The notes beneath the pieces are model-generated. The model was not told the DNA's origin and made no database searches. It saw nothing but the letters and a program-made list of their open reading frames with translations. A program made the position numbers and the translations under genes. DNA of 64,000 nt from an uncultured Bacillota bacterium (GTDB lineage: Bacteria > Bacillota_I > Bacilli_A > RF39 > UBA660). Shown in pieces: positions 22,659 through 23,872 of the stretch; positions within the stretch are counted from its first letter, which is position 1; the number at the start of each line of letters is the position of its first letter. Where the stretch lies: NCBI GenBank assembly GCA_945867665.1, contig CAMBIR010000001.1:30168-94167 (forward strand), given 5' to 3'.

Positions 22659-23513
22659 TTATAAATTTTCTAAAATACCATTTTCAAGATCATCAATATT
22701 ATACATTGTTTCTAATTCGTTAAATGTTTCTTCAAGATTTTTTCTAGCACTATTCCAACCAGTTCCATCAGTAAACCATACGAATGTAACGCCCTCAACT
22801 TTTTTCGATTCTTGTGCTAACATCTTATAACTTCTAGCAGTTTCATTTAATTTTGAACCACCACTAGAATAAAAATTAGTTTCTATTACATATACTTGTT
22901 TATCAGTTTTAATAACAAAATCAAATCTTTTTGTTGATGTATTATGTCCAGACATCTCACTTAAATTCAAATTCCATTTATTTTCTATGTCTTTTAAATA
23001 CATTTCTTTGAAATAATTAACATCTTTTTTATAACCTGCCTTAATGATATATGATTCAACTAAGTTTTCCATTAAATGTCCACCACGATTTTTTCTTCCA
23101 TTTGAATCAAGACCAACTTCAATACCTAAAACGTAATCATATAAGTTATTTATAATATGATTTTGTAATAAATCAAATAGACCAGATTCTTTCATGAATT
23201 TAATATAATCCTTCATAGAATAAACCATTTTATCAAACTTAAATAAATATTCGTTTATTTCATCTTTTACAAATATTTCTCGTGAACGAACTGCAAGTAA
23301 TAATGGGATACATTCTAAAGTTTCAGGATATTTAACTAATATATTTTGAAATTCTTCTTCTATATTTTTACTACCAATCAATGAATTTAAAATATTAAGT
23401 TCAACCTTTACTTTATCTACATTTTTGTATATCTTTTCAAAATCAACATAATAAGTATAATCTGATATACTTGTTTTAAATTTGCTTAACCATTCATTAA
23501 AATTTCTACTCAA
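22659..23513 (-). CDS. dpnB: Type II restriction endonuclease, DpnII/MboI family (GATC-specific)
   Basis: 284 aa, last gene of the M-M-R cassette. Motifs LIGSKNIEEEF, GRKNRGGHLMEN and FYSSGGSKLNETARSYK align with my recollection of the S. pneumoniae DpnII endonuclease. Confidence 0.7.
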   Translation of the reverse strand: MSRNFNEWLSKFKTSISDYTYYVDFEKIYKNVDKVKVELNILNSLIGSKNIEEEFQNILVKYPETLECIPLLLAVRSREIFVKDEINEYLFKFDKMVYSMKDYIKFMKESGLFDLLQNHIINNLYDYVLGIEVGLDSNGRKNRGGHLMENLVESYIIKAGYKKDVNYFKEMYLKDIENKWNLNLSEMSGHNTSTKRFDFVIKTDKQVYVIETNFYSSGGSKLNETARSYKMLAQESKKVEGVTFVWFTDGTGWNSARKNLEETFNELETMYNIDDLENGILENL

Positions 23514-23872
23514 AAATTTACACCTCCATTAAATTTTTCGTTATTGTTATTAATAACTTTTAACAATTCTTCATACAATTTTTTGCCTTTAATAAGTATT
23601 AATATATCAATATCTTGACTAATTTTTTCTTCAATAGTCATTTTTCTAACTGATGATTTCCCATACTTTTCAACTCTCATATTCATAACTACTTTAATCA
23701 ATTCTAAATAAAAATTATATTTTATTTCTATTTTATTTATGTATTGTTTCTTTTCTTCTATTGAAGAATTTTTAAGTAGATTTTTACCTTCATCTATATC
23801 TTTTTCTATGTCATTAATATCTCTTATCTTATAAGCAGATTCAAGTTGTTTTTTAATATTTTCTAACATCAC
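23510..23872 (-). CDS. Hypothetical 120-aa protein encoded between the second MTase and the REase (4-bp overlaps on both sides)
   Basis: The ORF is translationally coupled to both neighbours by ATGA overlaps. It is K/E/I-rich with no HTH detected. The canonical dpnM-dpnA-dpnB cassette has no equivalent. Confidence 0.35.
   Translation of the reverse strand: MMLENIKKQLESAYKIRDINDIEKDIDEGKNLLKNSSIEEKKQYINKIEIKYNFYLELIKVVMNMRVEKYGKSSVRKMTIEEKISQDIDILILIKGKKLYEELLKVINNNNEKFNGGVNF

Follow-up and report, generated by a model that had tools for sequence, protein, structure and literature searches.

Organization of the DpnII-type cassette

The stretch of DNA analyzed in this work (the window; 64,000 nucleotides of contig CAMBIR010000001.1 from an uncultured Bacillota bacterium) contains, on the minus strand, a DpnII-type restriction-modification (R-M) cassette of four genes. 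In the 5' to 3' direction, these are a Dam-like methylase, a DpnA-like methylase, an extra open reading frame (ORF) at 23510..23872, for which we use the working name ORF120, and a DpnII-family endonuclease. The first methylase (24668..25522, 284 aa) is DpnM-like and belongs to the D12/Dam class (PF02086, 3.6e-62; TIGR00571 dam, 1.6e-84; PADLOC MTase_II, 7e-97). The second, DpnA-like methylase (23869..24633, 254 aa) is of the N6_N4 class (PF01555, 3.4e-65; PADLOC MTase_II, 1.4e-103). The endonuclease (22659..23513, 284 aa) matches PF04556 over positions 1-277 of the 278 positions of the model (1e-109) and PADLOC REase_II (2.5e-102). The three enzymes of a DpnII-type system, namely the D12/Dam methylase, the N6_N4 methylase and the PF04556 nuclease, are all present and co-oriented, in the same order as in LlaDCHI on pSRQ700 and in a Staphylococcus aureus plasmid. 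Judged from family membership, the system would recognize GATC, and its cleavage would be blocked by N6-methyladenine.

Previously, a reading of the window made from the bare sequence (the sequence-only reading) proposed that an extra gene lies between the DpnA-like methylase and the DpnII-like nuclease of an otherwise canonical dpnM-dpnA-dpnB-type cassette. The coordinates that it gave agree exactly with the ORF listing, which places the gene on the minus strand, and the canonical order was verified on pSRQ700/LlaDCHI and the S. aureus plasmid. The same reading described ATGA overlaps on both sides of the gene, and here the geometry (4 nt, or 1 nt) was right and the letters were not. The overlap with the TGA stop codon of the DpnA-like methylase (23871-23869) is GTGA if ORF120 starts at GTG 23872-23870 (120 aa) and TGATG, sharing 1 nt, if it starts at ATG 23869 (119 aa). 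At the other end, the TTG start codon of the nuclease (23513-23511) lies over the TGA stop codon of ORF120 (23512-23510), forming TTGA. The true start of ORF120 is probably ATG 23869 rather than GTG 23872, because all homologues begin with MLENIK at this point.

Two Shine-Dalgarno (SD) motifs accompany these overlaps. The motif for ORF120, GGAGG at 23880..23884, was read from the sequence and the junction alignment; it lies in the final codons of the DpnA-like gene, 7 nt from the GTG and 10 nt from the ATG. The motif for the nuclease, GGAGGTG at 23521..23527, read from the sequence, is located 7 nt ahead of the TTG and coincides with the C-terminal Gly-Gly-Val codons of ORF120. ORF120 is thus predicted to be translated from its own SD motif, with stop/start overlaps on either side. 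As its start overlaps the methylase stop, zero intergenic space is left for a promoter of its own or for a C-box, the operator of the controller proteins (C-proteins) of other R-M systems, while a promoter within the methylase gene is possible. Judged by this lack of space, ORF120 is probably co-transcribed with its neighbours; the genes are packed so tightly that expression from one mRNA is expected, in line with the co-translation that the sequence-only reading regarded as almost certain.

The window is read with genetic code 11, under which ORFs of at least 200 aa cover 84% of its length, TGG makes up 0.63% of codons and TGA terminates 5 of the 41 long ORFs. A consensus promoter and terminator scan of this AT-rich DNA returned 41 promoter sites versus 50.8 in shuffled sequence. 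A putative operon terminator was read from the sequence at 22604..22650 on the minus strand, directly behind the stop codon of the nuclease, with a 10-bp stem (22641-22650/22609-22618), a 22-nt loop and a subsequent T-run; its loop exceeds the 8 nt allowed by the consensus scan, which for this reason missed it. An Rfam scan of the 20-27 kb region found nothing.

The ORF120 protein and its family

Among the 119 residues of ORF120 there are 20 K, 17 I, 14 E and 13 N and no H, C, W or P, in agreement with the K/E/I-rich composition remarked on in the sequence-only reading. The predicted isoelectric point (pI) is 8.9, with 23 K+R versus 20 D+E residues. A word-indexed protein search returned solely near-identical proteins and three apparent chimeras. 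An exhaustive phmmer search of 1.84 billion cluster representatives identified 16 proteins at E<=1e-3, eight of them at E<=1e-10, with lengths of 100-140 aa and 30-64% identity; the family is very small and taxonomically narrow. In the family alignment, D24, I25, G28, K40, Y43, Y51 and L90 are invariant, a G-x-x-S/T-x-R loop is conserved, and the pattern D-I-x-x-G...K-x-x-Y...Y...L is kept down to 30% identity.

The search for structural relatives suggested by the sequence-only reading was carried out with an AlphaFold2 model built on the family alignment. The model is confident (predicted local distance difference test, pLDDT, 89; predicted template modelling score, pTM, 0.83) and contains six helices, spanning residues 2-14, 18-34, 37-50, 52-69, 79-94 and 98-107. 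Foldseek found no fold match for it in the PDB (best E 1.5) or BFVD (best E 1.2), and the modelled fold is accordingly one with no known relative in these two collections. At the sequence level, searches of Pfam, NCBIfam, PADLOC and PHROGs with ORF120 gave noise only (E>0.02), the best E value in a profile search of PDB sequences was 0.13, tblastn against phage and plasmid records yielded no match, and IMG/VR contained no relative.

Several database versions of the protein deviate from the others. Proteins P0002-P0005 (P0002 is encoded at L001 10001-10384) are 127 aa long and end in ...NFWVEILMNG; they are annotation artefacts in which TGA was read as Trp (code 4), because the window statistics indicate code 11, and low-GC metagenome-assembled genomes (MAGs) of this group apparently are often gene-called with the Mycoplasma code. 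In P0007 (203 aa) and P0008 (100 aa), only the first ~34-50 residues are near-identical to ORF120 and the remainder is unrelated, continuing in P0007 into a HATPase_c domain. P0009 (92 aa) holds an internal, near-identical ORF120 stretch (~residues 24-51) within unrelated sequence. These three proteins are probably chimeric short-contig assemblies or truncations, with a recombination breakpoint inside the ORF as the alternative. A kinase link of ORF120 through the HATPase_c tail of P0007 was not accepted, as the contigs are short and were treated as chimeras or truncations.

ORF120 is an optional insertion

Comparative analysis of related loci was based on 80 of 398 DpnII-family nuclease hits. 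The nucleases of these 80 loci are 67-98% identical to that of the window and have the same N-terminus; the loci belong to MAGs of gut Bacilli and of Mollicutes-like and Erysipelotrichaceae-type bacteria, Clostridium sp. CAG:433 among them. The methylase|nuclease junction was scored in the 77 loci in which the DpnA-like methylase and the nuclease are both present. The two genes are adjacent or overlapping in 49 loci and separated by an insert of 90-550 nt in 25; one locus (L027) has 3.9 kb at this place, and two have another gene order.

Within the 80 loci, ORF120 at 96-97% identity is present only in L003, L004, L007 and L013; other copies are found in L001, L002 (87%), L092 (73%), L083 (42%), L095 and L096. 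The gene is missing from L005, L006, L008, L010, L017, L019 and others, despite flanking genes 92-97% identical to those of the window; even cassettes with flanks over 94% identical are among those without it. In such cassettes the methylase frame enters the nuclease start, typically as ATGTCTAG, with an 8-nt overlap. The nuclease starts at the identical residue (M-S/N/K-R-N-F-N-E-W) with or without ORF120, and some of the cassettes that lack ORF120 likewise use TTG as its start codon. In the annotated records of LlaDCHI on pSRQ700 and of the S. aureus plasmid, the cassette consists of three genes, with the second methylase directly followed by the nuclease.

In the junction alignment, the borders of the indel are the coding junctions themselves. 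Neither terminal inverted repeats nor a target-site duplication were found around the insert, only short AT-rich chance repeats, and insertion of a transposon or a miniature inverted-repeat transposable element (MITE) was rejected on account of the missing repeats and duplication and of these borders. The alignments indicate that ORF120 is a clean, optional insertion. It is also, as far as gene content tells, dispensable for basic R-M function, because two thirds of the sister cassettes do without it.

The same data decide whether ORF120 could be an artefact, either a chance ORF in AT-rich DNA or an N-terminus of the nuclease that was split off by a sequencing frameshift. What speaks for such an origin is the a priori worry that odd ORFs in AT-rich genomes raise, together with the non-ATG start of the nuclease. 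With the base composition of the island in which the cassette lies, the probability of a stop per codon on the ORF120 strand is 0.107, so that 120 open codons are expected with P ~1e-6 per start. ORF120 is intact in the independent assemblies L001-L004, L007, L013, L092, L095 and L096, and its reading frame is unbroken in every allele seen. It is in a different frame from the nuclease and has stand-alone homologues, and the nuclease, which aligns with the Pfam DpnII model from the first model position onward, has the same start residue in the cassettes without the ORF. Both forms of the artefact are refuted by the open-codon probability, the independent assemblies, the full-length nuclease and the homologues, and we give them practically no credence: ORF120 is a genuine protein-coding gene. 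The sequence-only reading had itself named two outcomes that would speak against an extra gene. The first, the absence of the ORF from homologous islands together with a shifted nuclease start, was found in its first half (49 of the 77 loci) and not in its second, as the start residue stays the same; the second, an N-terminal extension of the nuclease after correction of a frameshift, is contradicted by the unchanged start and the fully matched Pfam model.

The methylase|nuclease junction as a cargo slot

Each of the 25 short inserts at the methylase|nuclease junction consists of a single ORF on the same strand. At least five families can be distinguished among them, and no similarity between families was detected: (i) the ORF120 family, of which the group in L016, L050 and L071 probably represents distant relatives (hhalign 77%, E 2e-5, 75 columns); (ii) a family of ~120 aa in L011, L026, L034, L035, L065 and L067; (iii) a family of 75 aa (L022/L023 4764-4991, L025 4393-4620); (iv) a family of 180-189 aa with the conserved motif RTPKHIHWAVD (L033 4458-5000, L038, L068, L076 and L080 1997-2566, with partial copies in L053/L054); and (v) proteins of 159 aa with the DUF7004 domain (Pfam 5e-54; L039 4522-5001, L074 2241-2720). 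Apart from DUF7004 itself, the four families other than ORF120 have no match in Pfam, NCBIfam or PHROGs. A PADLOC scan of the 180-aa, DUF7004 and 75-aa families gave nothing at E<=0.001, with weak matches of the 180-aa family at E ~0.003-0.007. Slot ORFs of every family terminate in a GGAGG-like motif that is the ribosome-binding site of the nuclease; this explains the conserved C-terminal F-x-G-G-V/I in which the in-slot relatives of ORF120 end.

The long insert of L027 (1101-4995) contains four genes, which encode a ParB_N-like protein, a protein of 143 aa, an SNF2 helicase (PADLOC ZorD, 1.5e-46; DpdE, 7e-35) and a protein of 334 aa without a Pfam match. By its gene content this module looks like an uncharacterized defence system. 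The Dam|DpnA junction takes inserts in relatives too: a GmrSD_N/HEC-06-like protein in L016 (2081-3859), AIPR/AbiU in L064 (2472-4217), a KAP NTPase/PDC-S20-like protein with a 149-aa ORF in L075 (2892-4187), and uncharacterized proteins of 183-196 aa in L022/L023 (3389-3940), L052 (302-889) and L063 (75-665).

Taken across these loci, the methylase|nuclease junction is, on comparative grounds, a polymorphic cargo slot, and ORF120 is very probably a genuine optional accessory gene that occupies this slot in a mobile DpnII-type cassette.

Homologues outside the cassette

The 136-140-aa versions of the protein (P0019, P0020, P0025 and relatives) are encoded by monocistronic genes with no adjoining DpnII nuclease. 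One of the stand-alone homologues (L093) adjoins an HNH type II endonuclease (PADLOC REase_II, 1.3e-72), D12 and C5 methylases and a DUF6119 protein; another (L084) adjoins a STAND-type NTPase (PDC-M54A-like); a third (L086), with a transglycosylase gene as its neighbour, is located at the end of a contig. A distant relative of 114 aa (P0029; L089 6001-7206) lies downstream of an IS200-type Y1 transposase gene and is followed by overlapping ORFs of 132 and 158 aa, beyond which lie PDC-S10-like and PD-Lambda-2_B/RmrA-like genes; this row possibly represents another operon in which the same small protein is the central element. A protein of the ORF120 family would therefore not depend strictly on a DpnII nuclease and, in the few cases at hand, tends to lie among defence genes.

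Evolution and exchange of ORF120

Divergence of ORF120 was compared with that of the genes on its two sides in two lineages. In L092, synonymous divergence (dS) is 0.55 for ORF120, 0.57 for the methylase and 0.60 for the nuclease, and nonsynonymous divergence (dN) is 0.150, 0.035 and 0.035, respectively. In L083, the corresponding dS values are 0.95, 0.94 and 0.95, and the dN values are 0.50, 0.075 and 0.13. At the same synonymous divergence, amino-acid change in ORF120 is 4-6 times that of its neighbours, and the dN/dS ratio (omega) is 0.28-0.53 for ORF120 versus 0.05-0.14 for the neighbours. Eight near-identical alleles of ORF120 differ at six nonsynonymous and two synonymous sites, with codons 14 (E/K/D) and 95 (D/G/V) hit repeatedly. 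In the same comparison, the ratio is 9:15 in the adjacent 120 codons of the methylase and 4:17 in the first 120 codons of the nuclease (pooled, 13:32; Fisher p=0.019).

The backbones that carry near-identical ORF120 alleles are themselves diverged, with dS values of 0.4-0.65 between their Dam genes. In mismatch profiles of these loci, a tract of ~1 kb centred on ORF120 has 0-2 differences per 100 nt, compared with 6-9 or more per 100 nt in the flanking regions; on either side it takes in a few hundred nt of coding sequence, at the end of the methylase gene and at the beginning of the nuclease gene. Since this near-identical tract sits in diverged backbones, the ORF120-bearing segment has evidently been exchanged between them in recent times, by homologous recombination with the conserved methylase 3' end and nuclease 5' end as arms. 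No gene that co-varies with the presence of ORF120 was found among 24 loci.

These rates bear on the possibility that ORF120 is a nearly neutral passenger, carried along as cassettes recombine and retained because imprecise deletions between the methylase and the nuclease are lethal or inactivating. A passenger of this kind would be optional, as ORF120 is, would show a high omega relative to its neighbours and a recent polymorphism (6:2) near the neutral expectation, and could well belong to a tiny, taxonomically narrow family. However, the long-term omega remains at 0.28-0.53 at dS up to 0.95, no allele has lost the frame, the motif is conserved to 30% identity in a confidently predicted fold, and the family persists as stand-alone genes. 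Moreover, the spread of the tract with ORF120 to diverged backbones suggests some advantage. On balance, we regard a neutral passenger as improbable.

The island that carries the cassette

The cassette lies in a low-GC island of ~5.6 kb (~20591..26153, boundaries approximate), with a GC content of 0.21-0.27 versus 0.30-0.35 in the flanks. Downstream of the cassette, the island encodes on the minus strand a large serine recombinase (20591-22156, 521 aa; PF00239, PF07508, PF13408) and an ORF of 65 aa (22156-22353); in more than 20 loci, these two genes are conserved together with the cassette. Two small minus-strand ORFs lie upstream of the Dam gene (25581-25814 and 25784-26050), one of 77 aa and the other of 88 aa, the latter with a weak match to a holin-like PHROG (E 0.004) and two hydrophobic segments. 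In L001, a 439-aa uncharacterized gene takes their place, so that the island varies at this end too.

The island appears to split a gene for a cell-wall amidase with LysM repeats. On one side, the Amidase_3 ORF (26154..26786; assigned to Amidase_3 by the annotation of its L001 counterpart) ends with ...YYIVKSGDTLFMGNNE, which is the beginning of a LysM motif (YYIVKSGDTLF...). On the other side, an open frame with LysM repeats extends from the stop codon of the recombinase to 19974 and has no start of its own. L001 shows the same split, in the order Amidase_3, island, LysM. The split of the amidase gene is reminiscent of intervening elements that are excised by recombinases.

Comparison with known accessory genes

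DpnII/LlaDCHI/MboI-type cassettes (dpnM-dpnA-dpnB) share with the window the three enzymes, their order and orientation, the tight or overlapping junctions and, often, an adjoining recombinase gene. Unlike in the window, no gene separates the second methylase from the nuclease in the canonical cassettes of pSRQ700 and the S. aureus plasmid. Another small gene, dpnD, is found in the pneumococcal DpnI cassette, which has no methylases and in which dpnD lies downstream of the gene for the DpnI nuclease; in Pfam, ORF120 has no match to the DpnD/PcfM family.

C-proteins are Xre-type helix-turn-helix (HTH) dimers acting on a C-box promoter. As in the case of ORF120, the genes for C.PvuII, C.BamHI and C.Esp1396I are small, lie directly upstream of the endonuclease gene and overlap it, and the proteins are likewise dispensable for the enzymology and thought to be relevant to the establishment of mobile R-M systems. 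However, their C-box promoter drives the controller and nuclease genes apart from the methylase gene, whereas ORF120 is fused into the translation unit of the second methylase and the nuclease, has no intergenic space for a promoter and is missing from most sister cassettes. The Xre-like HTH fold of ~80-100 aa is not seen in ORF120. The sequence-only reading had noted the lack of an HTH and had concluded that the protein is not a classical C-protein; this is upheld by the AlphaFold2 model and Foldseek, which reveal no DNA-binding fold, and by the lack of a domain match.

Other candidate identities were rejected as well. An acidic DNA-mimic anti-restriction protein of the Ocr or ArdA type is unlikely, given the pI of 8.9, the excess of K+R over D+E and the absence of a PDB or BFVD fold match. 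PrrC is nested in the Type Ic system EcoprrI, where it acts as a guard that senses inhibited restriction (reviewed in PMC12707154). Like ORF120, it is an accessory gene co-expressed with the R-M operon genes among which it lies, but it encodes an ABC-ATPase/anticodon nuclease of ~400 aa in a Type I host system, whereas ORF120 has 119 aa, no catalytic signature and a Type II host. A guard of the PrrC/RloC type was rejected since neither the ABC-ATPase nor the anticodon-nuclease domain is recognizable in a protein of this size with no Pfam or PADLOC match and no His. Thus the model, the searches and the composition (no His, pI 8.9) argue that ORF120 is not an HTH controller, not an acidic DNA mimic and not an RNase of the HEPN type.

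The closest precedent is provided by defence genes that are embedded in defence operons, as established for Hma, BREX, DISARM and Type I R-M (bioRxiv 10.1101/2024.01.29.577857); another example is TgvAB, embedded in a Type I R-M system of V. cholerae (PMC11411939). Like ORF120, the HEC/PDC candidates and TgvAB are genes of unrelated function nested in a multi-gene defence operon, and their homologues also occur in non-embedded form. The surveys of embedding dealt with Hma, BREX, DISARM and Type I R-M rather than with three-gene Type II DpnII cassettes (bioRxiv 10.1101/2024.01.29.577857). ORF120 differs from the validated embedded systems in being far smaller, in overlapping translationally with both neighbours and in matching no PADLOC model.

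Possible role of ORF120

ORF120 is nested in the same orientation inside a defence system, and the junctions of sister cassettes hold defence genes, albeit in few cases. In the explanation that we favour, tentatively and at somewhat less than an even chance, ORF120 is an optional embedded accessory gene whose function is related to defence. It would be an accessory factor that uses the expression of the cassette, like the defence genes at the junctions of sister cassettes. Because it has no catalytic or DNA-binding signature, it would most probably act through protein-protein contacts, with a phage product, the nuclease or another host defence component, and it is probably not a transcriptional controller. 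Taken by itself, the functional assignment as a defence-related accessory, rather than a timer of the nuclease or a neutral passenger, is likewise somewhat less likely than not. The roles that the sequence-only reading had put forward, such as an endonuclease-delay factor or an anti-restriction or addiction module, stay hypothetical.

Several observations count against this assignment. Embedding is an association rather than a proof of function. No family of the PADLOC models, which include the HEC/PDC embedded candidates, is matched by ORF120 at E<=0.1. The stand-alone contexts are few (four kinds) and lie for the most part on short metagenomic contigs, of which one ENA study contributed several. 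The protein is small, without a catalytic motif, membrane segment or nucleotide-binding signature, and is hard to picture as a self-sufficient effector; its recent polymorphism, being near neutral, would also fit a weakly constrained passenger. Finally, ORF120 lies directly before the nuclease gene and holds the SD motif of the nuclease in its last codons, a position that would fit a role directed at the nuclease equally well.

Such a role can be envisioned in two modes, in both of which ORF120 would be a modulator or timer of the nuclease that aids the establishment of the cassette, a functional analogue of a C-protein without the HTH. In the first, cleavage would be damped or delayed through binding of the protein to the DpnII-type nuclease or to the DpnA-like methylase. 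In the second, ORF120 would be a translated spacer that loosens translational coupling and thereby lowers the nuclease:methylase ratio. ORF120 occupies the very place of C genes, upstream of the nuclease gene and overlapping it, and the nuclease starts at a weak codon, TTG, that relies on the SD motif within ORF120. Since the cassette is cargo of a serine-recombinase island, its establishment in naive hosts is a real problem; furthermore, ORF120 has diverged together with its flanks, at equal dS, in two lineages, and no other partner gene co-varies with it. Against this, two thirds of the close cassettes on similar islands, some of them also with a TTG nuclease, do without ORF120, and the 136-140-aa homologues are monocistronic with no DpnII nuclease nearby. 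The presence of at least five unrelated families and of whole defence modules in the slot is hard to square with one nuclease-specific function, and ORF120 has no DNA-binding fold. We therefore consider a nuclease-directed modulator somewhat unlikely and retain the embedded, defence-related accessory gene as the working interpretation.

Implications

Type II R-M cassettes are usually seen as closed units of two or three genes, with the C-protein as their sole accessory. About one third of the DpnII-type cassettes in these gut Bacilli and Mollicutes-like genomes carry an extra gene at the junction, drawn from at least five unrelated families. In the literature searched, we found no description of an extra ORF or an embedding slot in DpnII-type cassettes, nor of the ORF120 family. 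Relative to this literature, the embedding slot in a compact Type II operon is new, while embedding in defence operons was already known; the findings on the DpnII slot extend "guilt by embedding" from Type I R-M, BREX, DISARM and Hma to a compact Type II operon.

A more far-reaching, and rather unlikely, interpretation is that the methylase|nuclease junction is a dedicated exchange site for small, fast-evolving adaptors that couple to the Type II nuclease, with ORF120 as the first member; they would time or gate the nuclease at establishment, or sense or neutralize phage anti-restriction proteins. If true, this would constitute an undescribed protein-level layer of accessory functions for Type II R-M, whose first member would have a novel predicted fold. 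The slot in any case supplies small uncharacterized proteins as candidates, namely the ORF120 family, DUF7004, the 180-aa family and the 75-aa family. Should any of the slot proteins modulate the nuclease or counter anti-restriction, it would represent a new kind of R-M accessory; if none does, the slot is still a clean natural case of gene-cassette exchange by flanking homology within an operon.

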